A stretch of DNA of 64,000 nucleotides, from NCBI RefSeq assembly GCF_044324875.1, contig NZ_CP172185.1; one strand, 5' to 3'. The stretch comes from Escherichia coli (GTDB lineage: Bacteria; Pseudomonadota; Gammaproteobacteria; Enterobacterales; Enterobacteriaceae). Positions 10,707 through 46,704 of this stretch are shown here, piece after piece. The position numbers and the translations under genes were made by a program. The notes beneath the pieces were generated by a model. It was not told the origin of the DNA and made no database searches. It saw only the letters and a list, made by a program, of their open reading frames with translations. The number at the start of each line of letters is the position of its first letter. Position 1 is the stretch's first letter.

Positions 10707-10792
10707 ACATTTAAGCTGATGACCACCGCGCTTTTTATTGACCATTTTGCACGCAAACTGGAAAACCTGGCGTCGTCATCTATTCTTAAAGG

Positions 10793-10895
10793 GCAAGGCA
10801 ACTAAGCCTGCATTAATGCCAACTTTTAGCGCACGGCTCTCTCCCAAGAGCCATTTCCCTGGACCGAATACAGGAATCGTGTTCGGTCTCTTTTT
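10793..10895 (+). ncRNA. sdsR: SdsR (RyeB) Hfq-dependent sRNA; antisense RyeA/SraC expected on the opposite strand across the same locus
   Basis: Recognised sequence GCAAGGCAACTAAGCCTGCATTAATGCCAACTTTTAGCGCACGGCTCTCTCCCAAGAGCCATTTCCCTGGACCGAATACAGGAATCGTGTTCGGTCTCTTTTT, ending in a terminator hairpin plus U-tract; located in the yebY-pphA intergenic region as in K-12. Confidence 0.7.
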
Positions 10896-11029
10896 ATCTG
10901 TTAAAAGCCAGAAGCATTCCCTTCGCTGACTTTATAGTCAACCATAACACACACTCTACTGTCTGAGTCCAGCGTTTTTTAACATTCTTGTTAAGATTAT
11001 GTGATCTTTAGCGCGGGAGGAAAATATTG

Positions 11030-22352: not shown

Positions 22353-23068
22353 TGCACAGAAAACCCCCAGCTAGGCTGGGGGTTCCGGAAAGCTTTCAGC
22401 TTTGAGCCAGTTATTAAAACCCCTTTTGATTTGTTAAAACACCTTGCGGTCTGGCAACTGCAAGTGTCAAACAAGTGTCAAACAAGAAATCAAAAGGGGG
22501 TCCCAATGGGGAACGAAAAGAGCTTAGCGCACACCCGATGGAACTGTAAATATCACATAGTATTTGCGCCAAAATACCGAAGACAGGTGTTCTACAGAGA
22601 GAAGCGTAGAGCAATAGGCTGTATTTTGAGAAAGCTGTGTGAGTGGAAAAGTGTACGGATTCTGGAAGCTGAATGCTGTGCAGATCATATCCATATGCTT
22701 GTGGAGATCCCGCCCAAAATGAGCGTATCAGGCTTTATGGGATATCTGAAAGGGAAAAGCAGTCTGATGCTTTACGAGCAGTTTGGTGATTTGAAATTCA
22801 AATACAGGAACAGGGAGTTCTGGTGCAGAGGGTATTACGTCGATACGGTGGGTAAGAACACGGCGAAGATACAGGATTACATAAAGCACCAGCTTGAAGA
22901 GGATAAAATGGGAGAGCAGTTATCGATTCCCTATCCGGGCAGCCCGTTTACGGGCCGTAAGTAACGAAGTTGGATGCAAATGTCAGATCGTGTGCGCCTG
23001 TTAGGGCGCGGCTGGTAAGAGAGCCTTATAGGCGCATTTGAAAAACCTCCGGCTATGCCGGAGGATAT
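22353..23068 (+). mobile_element. IS200-like insertion sequence (about 0.7 kb; boundaries approximate)
   Basis: Contains an IS200-type tnpA; 5' region has a perfect hairpin (cccccagc-tagg-gctggggg, 22364-22382) and a long stem pairing ccccttttgatttgtt with aacaagaaatcaaaaggggg that would sequester the RBS; inserted between the htpX terminator and the yebQ stop. Confidence 0.6.
22506..22964 (+). CDS. tnpA: IS200 TnpA (HUH Y1 transposase)
   Basis: 152 aa from MGNEKSLAHTRWNCKYHIVFAPKYRRQVFY; HUH motif DHIHMLVEIPPK; near-identical to Salmonella IS200 TnpA as I recall it. Confidence 0.88.
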   Translation: MGNEKSLAHTRWNCKYHIVFAPKYRRQVFYREKRRAIGCILRKLCEWKSVRILEAECCADHIHMLVEIPPKMSVSGFMGYLKGKSSLMLYEQFGDLKFKYRNREFWCRGYYVDTVGKNTAKIQDYIKHQLEEDKMGEQLSIPYPGSPFTGRK

Positions 23069-26172: not shown

Positions 26173-26460
26173 ATGAACGAAGTTGTAAATTCAGGCGTGA
26201 TGAACATTGCGTCTTTGGTTGTATCGGTGGTGGTTCTTTTTATCGGGCTTATCTTGTGGTTTTTTATCAATCGTGCCAGTTCACGGACTAACGAACAGAT
26301 TGAACTGCTTGAGGCGTTGCTGGATCAGCAAAAACGTCAAAATGCTCTGTTACGTCGTTTGTGCGAAGCAAACGAACCTGAGAAAGCAGATAAAAAGACC
26401 GTTGAGAGTCAAAAATCGGTTGAAGACGAAGATATTATTCGTCTGGTCGCCGAACGATAA
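26173..26460 (+). CDS. yebO: Small membrane protein YebO
   Basis: 95 aa beginning MNEVVNSGVMNIASLVVSVVVLFIGLILWFF; followed by terminator hairpin gagtaaccc...gggttactc at 26476-26503. Confidence 0.8.
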   Translation: MNEVVNSGVMNIASLVVSVVVLFIGLILWFFINRASSRTNEQIELLEALLDQQKRQNALLRRLCEANEPEKADKKTVESQKSVEDEDIIRLVAER

Positions 26461-27129
26461 TCCTTCCTCAATCTTGAGTAACCCCGTCGTTGAAGGGTTA
26501 CTCAATTCATCCTGATTATACGCACTGTCATGGTGCAACTGCTTCAAATTAAAACTCTGGTCTGACTTCAAATAATTATCATATTATTTATTTGCGTAAC
26601 GGGATATCAGAAAAAGATATTTAGCCCATTAATTTATTAGGATGTTTACATCGGATTTGTGATTAAGCGTGGTATTATTTATTAGCGAAACGTTTCTCTC
26701 TTGATTTTTTTGCGCATTTATCAATTTTTCTTATTTTAAATTTACAATACCTTTGGCGATTGACTTCTCTTTGGGGTGATCTATAGCCGTTAACTGACTG
26801 TTTTATGAGAAAAAGTGATATAACTTTTTATTCATTGCATAGCAGAAAATGTGATATTGCACGCACTATGTAATAACTTCTCCCACTGGCCTGGAACAAC
26901 TGAACTTATTGAACTATGTTAGAAAATACGTCAGTTTAAGTATCTGCCTGAACTGGCAAGGTTAAGCACAATGATATATCGGCGCGTATTCCGTTGCATA
27001 AGTGTGCAAAAAAAGTGGAAGACGTATCGAGATTTGTGCGTCTGATCGAGACATGTTTAAAAATGGCTTGCCATAATTAACGTTGTATGTGATAACAGAT
27101 TTCGGGTTAAACGAGGTACAGTTCTGTTT

Positions 27130-27273
27130 ATGTGTGGCATTTTCAGTAAAGAAGTCCTGAGTAAACACGTTGACGTTGAATACCGCTTCTCTGCCGAGCC
27201 TTATATTGGTGCCTCATGCAGTAATGTGTCAGTTTTATCTATGTTATGCCTGCGGGCGAAGAAAACAATCTAA
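27130..27273 (+). CDS. yobF: Small protein YobF (47 aa; missed by the ORF track)
   Basis: ATG at 27130; translation [47 protein letters not shown]; ends 12 bp before cspC. Confidence 0.75.
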
Positions 27274-27285
27274 GGAATTTTTCAA

Positions 27286-27495
27286 ATGGCAAAGATTAAA
27301 GGTCAGGTTAAGTGGTTCAACGAGTCTAAAGGTTTTGGCTTCATTACTCCGGCTGATGGCAGCAAAGACGTGTTCGTACACTTCTCTGCTATCCAGGGTA
27401 ATGGCTTCAAAACTCTGGCTGAAGGTCAGAACGTTGAGTTCGAAATTCAGGACGGTCAGAAAGGTCCGGCAGCTGTTAACGTAACAGCTATCTGA
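27286..27495 (+). CDS. cspC: Cold-shock-domain protein CspC
   Basis: 69 aa [40 protein letters not shown]1/RNP2 motifs. Confidence 0.93.
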
Positions 27496-27660
27496 TCGAA
27501 TCCACTGATCTGAAGTGTGAATACGCTTCAATCTCGCTATAAAGCCTCGTCGAATGCGAGGCTTTTTACTTTGCTTTATCTTCGCTCCAGTCGTTCGGAT
27601 ATTTGCCCGCCGCGTGATTCGCGTTACACTTGCGGCCTTTAGTGTCCTGCCGGAGTTGTC

Positions 27661-29089: not shown

Positions 29090-29265
29090 ATACATGAACG
29101 ACAAACCGCGATGGTTTTCGCGTTCATGCAGGCATAGCGATTGATGTGCATATGGTCTCGCCTGACTGAAAGTGTTCAGTCCGTACGTGCCACGTTTTGC
29201 AACGAGTATGTTGACACGTACATTTCCGGAATCTGGAAATCGGCTACTCCCCAAATGAGGGCGCA
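29090..29265 (-). promoter_or_regulatory. Candidate yybP-ykoY Mn2+ riboswitch in the mntP 5' leader (boundaries approximate)
   Basis: Minus-strand leader contains GGGGAGUAGCC and other structured, GC-rich conserved-looking segments between a promoter-like region and the mntP start; a spurious 81 aa ORF in the track covers it. Confidence 0.55.
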
Positions 29266-29461
29266 ACCTTAACATATTTTGAGAATATAAAACAACTGTT
29301 GGAATATATTATTTCATTGCTTTATTGATAACGATTTTCATTTAGATTTATATATCAATGAAACGTTAAAATAAATAACAAATAAGGGAAGGGGTAATAT
29401 AGCCTAAGCTATGTCTGATTATTAAAAATACACTAAACATAGCTTTGGCTAAATTGATAAC

Positions 29462-29920
29462 TTATTGAGTTGAAACGAGAAGCTTATAAATTTTTTCCAG
29501 ATCGTCGATATTTCGAACGCGGATTAACAGCCGACGCTGTTCTAATTGCATCACCAACACGCCATCTTCCGACAAGTTCATCGCTTTGATTCGGCTATAT
29601 TCAATCCAGACATTGGCGAAGAAAAAACCTTTTTGTTTAAAGATGATCTTCGGAACGCGGATCCAGAATATATAAAAACCCATCAGAGCCAGTGCACTTA
29701 ATAACCATGTTGTTATTAGCGCGCCATGATTCGTGACGTTGTTATAGATAAGAATGACAATCAATCCGACGAAGATAACGCTATCGATGCGACCACGCCG
29801 GAGCAAAGGAATTGCCAGCAGAGTGAGGCCGTTACGGCGGGGCATGATGAACTGATCGTAGATCGCGAAGGCCAGGAGTGCGGCGATGAAAAGAATCAGT
29901 ACCAGGTCCGTGATTGTCAT
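29462..29920 (-). CDS. yobD: Inner membrane protein YobD
   Basis: 152 aa membrane protein in the expected position. Confidence 0.8.
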
Positions 29921-44973: not shown

Positions 44974-46659
44974 TTGAAGAAGGTTTGGCTTAACCGTTAT
45001 CCCGCGGACGTTCCGACGGAGATCAACCCTGACCGTTATCAATCTCTGGTAGATATGTTTGAGCAGTCGGTCGCGCGCTACGCCGATCAGCCTGCGTTTG
45101 TGAATATGGGGGAGGTGATGACCTTCCGCAAGCTGGAAGAACGCAGTCGCGCGTTTGCCGCTTATTTGCAACAAGGGTTGGGGCTGAAGAAAGGCGATCG
45201 CGTTGCGTTGATGATGCCTAATTTATTGCAATATCCGGTGGCGCTGTTTGGCATTTTGCGTGCCGGGATGATTGTCGTAAACGTTAACCCGTTGTATACC
45301 CCGCGTGAACTTGAGCATCAGCTTAACGATAGCGGCGCATCGGCGATTGTTATCGTGTCTAACTTTGCCCACACTCTGGAAAAAGTGGTTGATAAAACCG
45401 CCGTTCAGCACGTAATTCTGACCCGTATGGGCGATCAGCTATCTACGGCAAAAGGCACGGTAGTCAATTTCGTTGTTAAATACATCAAGCGTCTGGTGCC
45501 GAAATACCATCTGCCAGATGCCATTTCATTTCGTAGCGCCCTGCACAACGGCTACCGGATGCAGTACGTCAAACCCGAACTGGTGCCGGAAGATTTAGCT
45601 TTCCTGCAATACACCGGCGGCACCACAGGTGTGGCGAAAGGCGCGATGCTGACTCACCGCAATATGCTGGCGAACCTGGAACAGGTTAACGCGACCTATG
45701 GTCCGCTGTTGCATCCGGGCAAAGAGCTGGTGGTGACGGCGCTGCCGCTGTATCACATTTTTGCACTGACCATTAACTGCCTGCTGTTTATCGAACTGGG
45801 TGGGCAGAACCTGCTTATCACTAACCCGCGCGATATTCCAGGGTTGGTAAAAGAGTTAGCGAAATATCCGTTTACCGCTATCACTGGCGTTAACACCTTG
45901 TTCAATGCGTTGCTGAACAATAAAGAGTTCCAGCAGCTGGATTTCTCCAGTCTGCATCTTTCCGCAGGCGGAGGGATGCCTGTTCAGCAAGTGGTGGCAG
46001 AACGTTGGGTGAAACTGACTGGACAGTATCTGCTGGAAGGTTATGGCCTGACCGAGTGTGCGCCGCTGGTCAGCGTTAACCCGTATGATATTGATTATCA
46101 TAGTGGTAGCATCGGTTTGCCGGTGCCGTCGACGGAAGCCAAACTGGTGGATGACGACGACAACGAAGTACCACCGGGTCAACCGGGTGAGCTTTGTGTC
46201 AAAGGACCGCAGGTGATGCTGGGTTACTGGCAGCGTCCGGATGCTACCGATGAGATCATCAAAAATGGCTGGTTACACACCGGCGACATCGCGGTGATGG
46301 ATGAAGAAGGATTCCTGCGCATTGTCGATCGTAAAAAAGACATGATTCTGGTTTCCGGTTTTAACGTCTATCCCAACGAGATTGAAGATGTCGTCATGCA
46401 GCATCCTGGAGTACAGGAAGTCGCGGCTGTTGGCGTACCTTCCGGCTCCAGTGGTGAAGCGGTGAAAATCTTCGTAGTGAAAAAAGATCCATCGCTTACC
46501 GAAGAGTCACTGGTGACTTTTTGCCGCCGTCAGCTCACGGGCTACAAAGTACCGAAGCTGGTGGAGTTTCGTGATGAGTTACCGAAATCTAACGTCGGAA
46601 AAATTTTGCGACGAGAATTACGTGACGAAGCGCGCGGCAAAGTGGACAATAAAGCCTGA
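44974..46659 (+). CDS. fadD: Long-chain fatty acyl-CoA synthetase
   Basis: 561 aa from a TTG start ([25 protein letters not shown]); AMP-binding motif [11 protein letters not shown]. Confidence 0.92.
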
Positions 46660-46678
46660 GCGTTAAGTCAGTCGTCAG

Positions 46679-46704
46679 ACGCCGGTTAATCCGGCGTTTT
46701 TTTT
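46679..46704 (+). terminator. Intrinsic terminator after fadD
   Basis: cgccgg-ttaat-ccggcg followed by tttttttt. Confidence 0.55.

Follow-up and report, generated by a model that had tools for sequence, protein, structure and literature searches.

Upstream of the genes yobF and cspC, Escherichia coli carries a long AT-rich stretch in which no gene is annotated, and the question arises whether this DNA is a regulated leader of the yobF-cspC mRNA, a small gene that has escaped annotation, or a control region. We analyzed the stretch within a window of 64,000 nucleotides of E. coli DNA (contig NZ_CP172185.1, assembly GCF_044324875.1), to which all coordinates refer unless stated otherwise. The gene order is kdgR, yobH, mgrB, yebO, the spacer, yobF, cspC and rlmA, and the spacer is bounded by the yebO stop at 26460 and the yobF ATG at 27130. 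Positions 26400-27300 aligned to K-12 MG1655 with zero indels (K-12 coordinate = 1934721 minus the window coordinate, minus strand), and this segment was present in 5,423 of 5,426 complete E. coli genomes. The results showed that the GC content of the spacer was 35.4%, compared with 50.3% for the window; it was the lowest-GC 669-bp stretch of the window, with just 0.08% of 669-bp windows being as low, an AT-richness beyond chance. The K-12 annotation contains no feature in the yebO-yobF spacer, and no RefSeq feature lay under 26940-27060 among the matches listed (5,420 genomes matched).

The first-pass annotation had described an AT-rich non-coding stretch upstream of yobF-cspC, and this stretch is real, slightly exceeding at 669 bp the 26504-27129 given there. 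The accompanying statement that it holds no ORF of at least 60 aa was confirmed for ORFs lying wholly within the spacer, but two minus-strand ORFs, of 68 aa (26962-27168) and 73 aa (26350-26571), overlap its ends. Likewise, the yebO terminator proposed at its upstream edge corresponds to a stable hairpin at 26474-26505, but this hairpin has no U-tract and was not called as a terminator by the terminator scan. The evidence presented here indicates that the stretch is very likely the DNA that controls transcription of the yobF-cspC operon, and neither a leader nor a gene. It is the already known yobF-cspC promoter region, an ordinary and largely known one. The features of the region are listed in Table 1.

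Table 1. Features of the yebO-yobF spacer and adjoining genes (window coordinates; a dot marks features given without a strand).
Feature	Coordinates	Strand	Description
yebO-yobF intergenic spacer	26461..27129	+	669 bp, 35% GC; regulatory region of the yobF-cspC operon (very likely)
Hairpin 3' of yebO	26474..26505	+	11-bp stem, 10-nt loop, no U-tract; -17.7 kcal/mol, z = -2.98
Island A	26682..26701	.	TTAGCGAAACGTTTCTCTCT; palindromic self-complementary core GAAACGTTTC, central CG
Island B	26717..26744	+	family consensus gTCAT..tTTCATTATTttggTGCA
Island C	26828..26856	.	GCATaa.t..gCa.aAa; conserved footprint
Island D	26891..26927	+	cTGGAAC-17 nt-TATGTT; -35 26892-26897, -10 26915-26920
24-codon ORF	26971..27045	+	chance ORF, not a gene
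Island E	26996..27009	.	GCATAAnTGTGCAg (TGCA-N6-TGCA); conserved footprint ~100 bp upstream of the main start
Upstream half of core	27030..27067	+	aTtTGTGCGnCnGATCgAGACa, then A/T-rich GTTTAAAAATGG abutting the -35; 80-100% identity, 28-72 loci
Upstream core promoter	27048..27077	+	GAGACA-18-TGcCATAAT, from promoter scan; start ~27082, ~5 nt past the -10
Main core promoter	27068..27106	+	TTGCCA (27068-73)-17-GATAAC (27091-96); starts 27103-27106, 7-10 nt past the -10
Short yobF leader	27107..27129	+	Shine-Dalgarno GAGGT (27113-27117); published OxyS pairing region; invariant across the family
yobF	27130..27273	+	47 aa, DUF2527
cspC	27286..27495	+	69 aa

Transcription of yobF-cspC has been reported to proceed from sigma-70 promoters, and tagRNA-seq mapped yobF starts at K-12 positions 1907615/6/7/8 (PMC7075262), which correspond to 27103-27106. 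A genomic SELEX study lists a TTGCCA-17-GATAAC promoter for the yobF spacer (PMC3946193). For comparison across the family, 80 orthologous Enterobacteriaceae loci were fetched through YebO and their spacers aligned, with counts drawn from 72-74 loci. In 99% of 72 loci, the main -10 scored as a promoter at one and the same column of the alignment, and the core as a whole (27030-27130) was 80-100% identical from Escherichia to Buttiauxella and Cedecea (72-74 loci). In Salmonella, the insert cloned as the "yobF 5'-UTR" starts, by its primer, with GTTGTATGTGATAAC (supplement of PMC10965054). This primer start, GTTGTATGTG, is the equivalent of window position 27082, just past the extended -10 TGcCATAAT of the upstream core promoter. 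The two core promoters overlap, with a shared element that serves one as its -35 and the other as its -10. The sequence of 27030-27067 resembles an UP element and holds a candidate factor site. A CRP site on the core, read by eye, was a poor fit.

These promoters agree in locus and function with those catalogued for K-12 yobF-cspC, the TTGCCA-17-GATAAC promoter lying in the last 60 bp of the spacer. The catalogued promoters are yobFp1, yobFp2 and cspCp8 (RegulonDB/EcoCyc, as cited in PMC13162491), and yobFp2 may be either the TGcCATAAT promoter with its start at ~27082 or the distal element of island D. Since transcription starts at 27103-27106 and, by the Salmonella equivalent, at ~27082, the yobF leaders that follow from the mapped starts are 24-48 nt long, not hundreds of nucleotides, and the long regulated leader suggested initially is not borne out. 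Only a secondary upstream promoter, as suggested by conservation and a Salmonella start site, could give a leader of ~200 nt.

Genes of the cspA family are known for long leaders, and cspC is a paralogue of cspA. The stretch could be read in the same way, as a long structured 5' leader of yobF-cspC that acts as a cspA-like thermosensor or riboswitch. The Rfam cspA model (RF01766) matches 27110-27570 with 139 bits, the first bases of the yobF leader, ACGAGGTACAG, resemble the start of the cspA leader, and post-transcriptional induction of YobF by heat shock is credited in the literature to an earlier study. However, the Rfam match begins past the spacer as searched (26461-27109) and derives for the most part from the coding sequence of cspC; where cspA has its long UTR, this operon has the yobF coding sequence, and the leader is short. 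Within 26461-27109 we found neither a match to this model nor conserved structure. RNAalifold in 120-nt windows on both strands, applied to 28 genera-level sequences, gave a consensus energy of 0 everywhere upstream of 27030, and the 214-nt E. coli candidate folded like its shuffles (z = -1.1). A long structured leader is thereby largely refuted, and we consider it exceedingly improbable.

We then considered the length of the spacer. Across Enterobacteriaceae, yobF was consistently preceded by at least 510 bp of non-coding DNA; the spacer after yebO measured 588-706 bp in all loci but one, and its GC content was family-wide ~10 points below that of the flanks. In 29 tabulated loci, a gene for a 331-aa protein of the metallo-beta-lactamase (MBL) fold lies between yebO and yobF, with 513-552 bp of non-coding DNA between this gene and yobF. 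The long spacer might therefore be the decayed remnant of a lost MBL-fold gene: the gene sits at exactly the same place in all of these loci, the Enterobacter cloacae complex lacks it and keeps ~95 nt of its 3' end, and spacers without the gene are ~100-150 bp longer than the stretch that follows it in carriers. Against this, tblastn (E <= 10) and an nhmmer profile found no similarity to the gene in Escherichia, Salmonella, Citrobacter and Klebsiella, where the profile hit nothing but the stretch that follows the gene, and even loci with the gene retain 510-550 bp of non-coding DNA ahead of yobF. Because at least 510 bp persist beside an intact gene, gene loss explains at most the 150 bp nearest yebO. 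In genomes that lack the MBL-fold gene, a deletion scar may account for part of the extra spacer length, but as an account of the spacer as a whole, decay of the gene is unlikely.

Upstream of the core, the alignment revealed five conserved islands (A-E) of 14-37 nt, set apart by unconserved sequence with very few indels. Clustering of the 1,193 ORFs that reach 10 codons in the full set of orthologous spacers revealed no conserved ORF in any frame; every large cluster represented DNA that is conserved in several frames at once, and none kept start, stop and frame together. No intrinsic terminator was found in the spacer on either strand by the terminator scan, and no Rfam match was obtained inside 26461-27109 at E <= 1; a psRNA2 match was noise, at 15.6 bits against a threshold of 65. 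Since the islands are short, lie in unconserved sequence and come without RNA structure, ORF, terminator or Rfam match, we read them as protein-binding sites. We found no description of the five upstream islands in the literature.

The same islands could belong to an unannotated small RNA gene, with islands A and B as its promoter and islands C and D in its body. The presence of short conserved islands far from the core promoter would fit such a gene, as would the binding of RNA polymerase at several places in vitro and a sigma-S-preferred signal on the opposite strand of the spacer in an in-vitro run-off array. However, a small RNA gene is at odds with the lack of an intrinsic terminator inside the spacer on either strand and with the lack of any Rfam match or conserved structure, and islands of 14-37 nt amid unconserved sequence are the pattern of protein-binding sites. 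We regard a small RNA gene here as very unlikely. A study of antisense dsRNA (PMC7373196) contains cspC in its reference list only.

The first-pass annotation had also proposed that the region is an H-NS-bound promoter of yobF-cspC, and this agrees with its 35% GC content and with published in-vitro data. In the genomic SELEX study, the "670 bp spacer" of yobF is marked "HNS" and carries multiple peaks of the RpoD holoenzyme in vitro (PMC3946193). The spacer also contains SELEX peaks of the RpoS and RpoN holoenzymes, at ~26977 and ~27093, respectively, positions that result from an approximate coordinate conversion of coarse-resolution in-vitro data; the RpoS peak counts as evidence for island D. 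The 847-bp mngB-cydA spacer is named alongside the yobF spacer for multiple RpoD-holoenzyme peaks, and both are marked for H-NS (PMC3946193). In contrast to silenced H-NS-bound spacers, the sigma-70 transcription reported for yobF-cspC indicates that this is not a silenced operon. The yobF spacer also differs from H-NS-bound foreign DNA: it is syntenic and conserved across Enterobacteriaceae, which does not support a foreign, lineage-specific origin and argues that it was not horizontally acquired, and its AA/TT periodicity at 10-11 bp was not above that of shuffles (22%), indicating no significant A-tract phasing or curvature. In the literature, we found no named regulator of yobF-cspC transcription, save a proposed repressive RpoN holoenzyme.

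Among the promoter-like signals in the alignment, island D ranks second in positional conservation. TGGAnn-17-TA(T/A)GGT or a close variant was present in 65 of 74 loci, with the 17-nt spacing exact and the spacer sequence variable, and the motif lay mostly 206-218 nt from the yobF ATG (74 loci). In Salmonella, the -10 TATGGT lies within CTGGAAGAAGCGAAGTTATTGAGCTATGGT. The dinucleotide GC precedes the -10, and a C at -13 is a sigma-S signature. The predicted start in E. coli is ~26927 (K-12 ~1907794), 203 nt before the yobF ATG. Consensus sequences of sigma-54, sigma-32 and sigma-E, read by eye on island D, did not fit well.

Published Salmonella coordinates bear on this start. The SalComMac operon start is at 1893683 in 4/74 coordinates, two Tn5 insertions "in the 5'-UTR" are at 1893511 and 1893502, and one "in cspC" is at 1893137 (PMC10965054). 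We compared these positions as relative distances with the geometry of ten S. enterica loci (yobF ATG at 1501, cspC at 1657-1866) and found that the Tn5 statements can be jointly true only if the start at 1893683 lies 181-390 nt upstream of the yobF ATG. With a start at 203 nt, as predicted from island D, the two 5'-UTR insertions fall 22-31 nt ahead of the yobF ATG and the cspC insertion 22 nt short of the end of cspC. The 48-nt start was rejected as SalComMac 1893683, as the insertions would then fall inside yobF and 133 nt beyond cspC, and island B was excluded as its source by the Tn5 distances; island C may be an alternative source. These comparisons suggest that island D is most likely a secondary sigma-S/sigma-70 promoter that would give rise to a minor transcript with a ~200-nt leader. 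If the island-D start holds in E. coli, the 24-codon ORF discussed below would be carried on this minor transcript and would still be unconserved.

The ORF at 26971-27045 had been put forward as a possible upstream ORF or unannotated small protein. It translates exactly to MIYRRVFRCISVQKKWKTYRDLCV, and a Shine-Dalgarno-like AAGG (26958-26961) stands at a workable distance, 9 nt before the ATG at 26971. To judge how far such an ORF departs from chance, we used dinucleotide-preserving shuffles of the spacer: 28% of them held an ATG ORF of at least 24 codons with a Shine-Dalgarno-like 4-mer, so that the ORF is not beyond chance. ATG ORFs of this minimum length had a mean of 4.7 per shuffle, compared with 2 in the real spacer. 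The ATG is confined to E. coli; it is replaced by GCG in E. albertii and by TCG or CTC in two other Escherichia lineages, and it was missing in all 25 other representatives, including Salmonella, Citrobacter, Klebsiella and Enterobacter. Many of the homologous stretches outside E. coli contain stops or frame shifts, and the 24-codon frame is not kept in related taxa. The only "conserved" part of the ORF is its last 15 nt, which overlap the promoter core; all three frames are equally conserved there, indicating that the constraint acts on DNA and not on protein. The exact peptide was not found among ~15 billion predicted proteins, and it matched no Pfam family.

The ORF could nevertheless be translated as an upstream ORF or young small protein specific to E. 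coli, from a transcript with a long leader initiated at the island-D promoter (~26927). The ATG with its AAGG would permit initiation, a promoter-like element upstream would bring the ORF into an mRNA, and most E. coli genomes share an identical 26940-27060 segment (100% identity in 26 of 30 matches spread evenly). However, this near-invariance fits a promoter-proximal constraint on DNA equally well, the ORF occurs at chance frequency, and its start codon is replaced in other Escherichia and absent from all other genera. In addition, one natural E. coli isolate, from blood, carries a 1-nt deletion in an A7 run within the ORF that shifts its frame, the main transcription starts (27103-27106 and ~27082) lie downstream of its stop at 27045, and it is neither annotated, in K-12 or elsewhere, nor predicted anywhere. 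Translation of this ORF is highly improbable. The 24-codon ORF, which only E. coli has, arose by chance in AT-rich sequence and is not a gene; as a gene-finding lead it is of no importance, and it should not be annotated.

The core of island A, A.CGAAACGTTT, was invariant in ~66 of 72 loci. The rbsO oligonucleotide in the crystal structure of RbsR, a repressor of the LacI/GalR family, is TCAGCGAAACGTTTCGCTGA, and island A was identical to it at 16 of 20 positions in E. coli and at 17 of 20 in Citrobacter. Both have the palindromic core around a central CG, and they agree fully in the left half-site, AGCGAAAC; in contrast, the right half-site of island A is degenerate, GTTTCTCT or GTTTTGCT against GTTTCGCT in rbsO, and island A lies ~415 bp from the main start. 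By our estimate, a 16/20 match to rbsO is expected ~3-4 times per genome by chance, and conservation is thus the real argument for island A. The most probable reading of island A, held less firmly than that of island D, is an operator bound by an RbsR/PurR-type repressor of the LacI family, and a PurR-type or other LacI-family protein would be equally possible at this site. RbsR and CspC mutants came from the same Salmonella succinate-utilisation screen (PMC10965054); we found no direct link of RbsR to yobF-cspC in the literature. Island B is possibly a TTGAGG-17-CATTAT promoter in other genera that has degenerated in Escherichia.

Taken together, transcription of yobF-cspC starts from two overlapping sigma-70 promoters in the last ~50 bp of the spacer, and the resulting mRNA leader of 24-48 nt carries the Shine-Dalgarno sequence and the OxyS target. 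The ~570 bp upstream are AT-rich and are bound in vitro by H-NS and by several RNA-polymerase holoenzymes, and the five conserved islands in this DNA would be protein-binding sites, with island D giving a minor sigma-S/sigma-70 transcript with a ~200-nt leader. What is new here is modest and consists of the family-wide footprint map, the probable sigma-S-type distal promoter and the putative RbsR/PurR-like operator. It is also conceivable, at a small but real probability, that the spacer is a multi-input distal control module for CspC, in which an RbsR-like operator (island A) stands beside a distal promoter (island B) and is joined by a stationary-phase sigma-S promoter (island D). If true, CspC levels would be coupled to sugar or nucleotide status as well as to the sigma factor of stationary phase, and there would be a direct route from RbsR to CspC.

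The locus itself has attracted attention in both E. coli and Salmonella. It is a recurrent target of adaptive mutation, as 12 of 24 isolates from aging E. coli colonies were mutated in yobF-cspC (PMC13162491); yobF-cspC mutants were likewise recovered in the Salmonella succinate-utilisation screen (PMC10965054), and the locus has been tied to PhoP activation in Salmonella (PMC8599858). The nearly invariant 100-bp core and the five islands that extend from Escherichia to Buttiauxella and Cedecea, among them the probable sigma-S-type distal promoter and the candidate RbsR/PurR-like operator, provide defined targets for promoter deletion and gel-shift experiments on this operon.

We compared the distance from island D, the promoter-like element of the yebO-yobF spacer, to the yobF ATG across 65 loci (the window and its homologues among L003-L082, the orthologous Enterobacteriaceae loci fetched through YebO), and found that it was mostly 206-218 nt. 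The intervening sequence (window 26930-27030 and its counterparts in L003-L082) was only about 30% conserved. Selection appears to act against indels between island D and the yobF ATG.

Further upstream, about 415 bp before the main yobF start, lies a near-palindromic sequence, TTAGCGAAACGTTTCTCTCT, which matched the RbsR operator rbsO at 16 of 20 positions. Its core was kept in about 66 of 72 Enterobacteriaceae loci. At the yobF end of the spacer, the short yobF leader, AAACGAGGTACAGTTCTGTTTATG, was invariant across Enterobacteriaceae and was aligned by an Rfam model to the first bases of cspA mRNA. The cspA mRNA has a long 5' UTR, and yobF sits at the corresponding place in yobF-cspC. yobF opens with AUGUG, which a study on ambiguous initiation includes among its sequences (PMC9841429). 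The downstream gene, which corresponds to cspC of K-12, was named 'cspE' by NCBI's pipeline in the RefSeq E. coli genomes listed, a naming inconsistency.

On the opposite strand, the promoter scan of 26461-27495 returned one minus-strand site (CTGATA-16-AATAAT), directed into yebO. In an in-vitro run-off array study, the sigma-S-preferred transcripts include the forward-strand probe of the spacer, opposite to yobF, and a CFT073 ORF antisense to cspC is also listed (PMC3141248). The hairpin following yebO was very stable (z = -3.0) and carried no U-tract.

Elsewhere in the window, a manganese riboswitch upstream of mntP scored 41.9 bits, just below the Rfam threshold of 45, and is therefore missed by a gathering-threshold scan. 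It is adjoined by an AT-rich inverted repeat in a stretch of 25% GC, with weak hairpin-type matches on both strands. Known sRNA genes also lie in the window, each strongly matched in Rfam: the pair SraC/RyeA and SdsR/RyeB, which are on opposite strands, as well as STnc490 and sroD.

Coordinates of the features described (window positions unless a locus is named)
Feature	Locus	Coordinates	Remark
Post-yebO hairpin	window	26474-26505	
Minus-strand promoter-like site	window	26610-26583	
rbsO-like site	window	26682-26701	
yobF leader	window	27107-27132	
cspC	window	27286-27495	
Manganese riboswitch	window	29164-29260 (-)	
AT-rich inverted repeat	window	29385-29466	
Known sRNA gene	window	10755-10899	strong Rfam match
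Known sRNA gene	window	22362-22496	strong Rfam match
Known sRNA gene	window	46618-46703	strong Rfam match
Metallo-beta-lactamase-fold gene	L010	3308-4303	between yebO and yobF
Metallo-beta-lactamase-fold gene	L027	3310-4317	between yebO and yobF
Spacers listed with this gene observation	L050, L057, L069, L073, L074		

In some genera, the yebO-yobF interval holds a gene of 331-335 aa with a metallo-beta-lactamase fold (Pfam Lactamase_B_2, E = 8e-42). It was carried by Lelliottia, Leclercia, Kosakonia, Phytobacter, Buttiauxella, Cedecea, Franconibacter and some Enterobacter, and was not found at this position in Escherichia, Salmonella, Citrobacter or Klebsiella. The E. cloacae complex has no copy of the gene but retained a 3'-terminal stretch of about 95 nt, and this remnant indicates that the gene was deleted recently in the complex.
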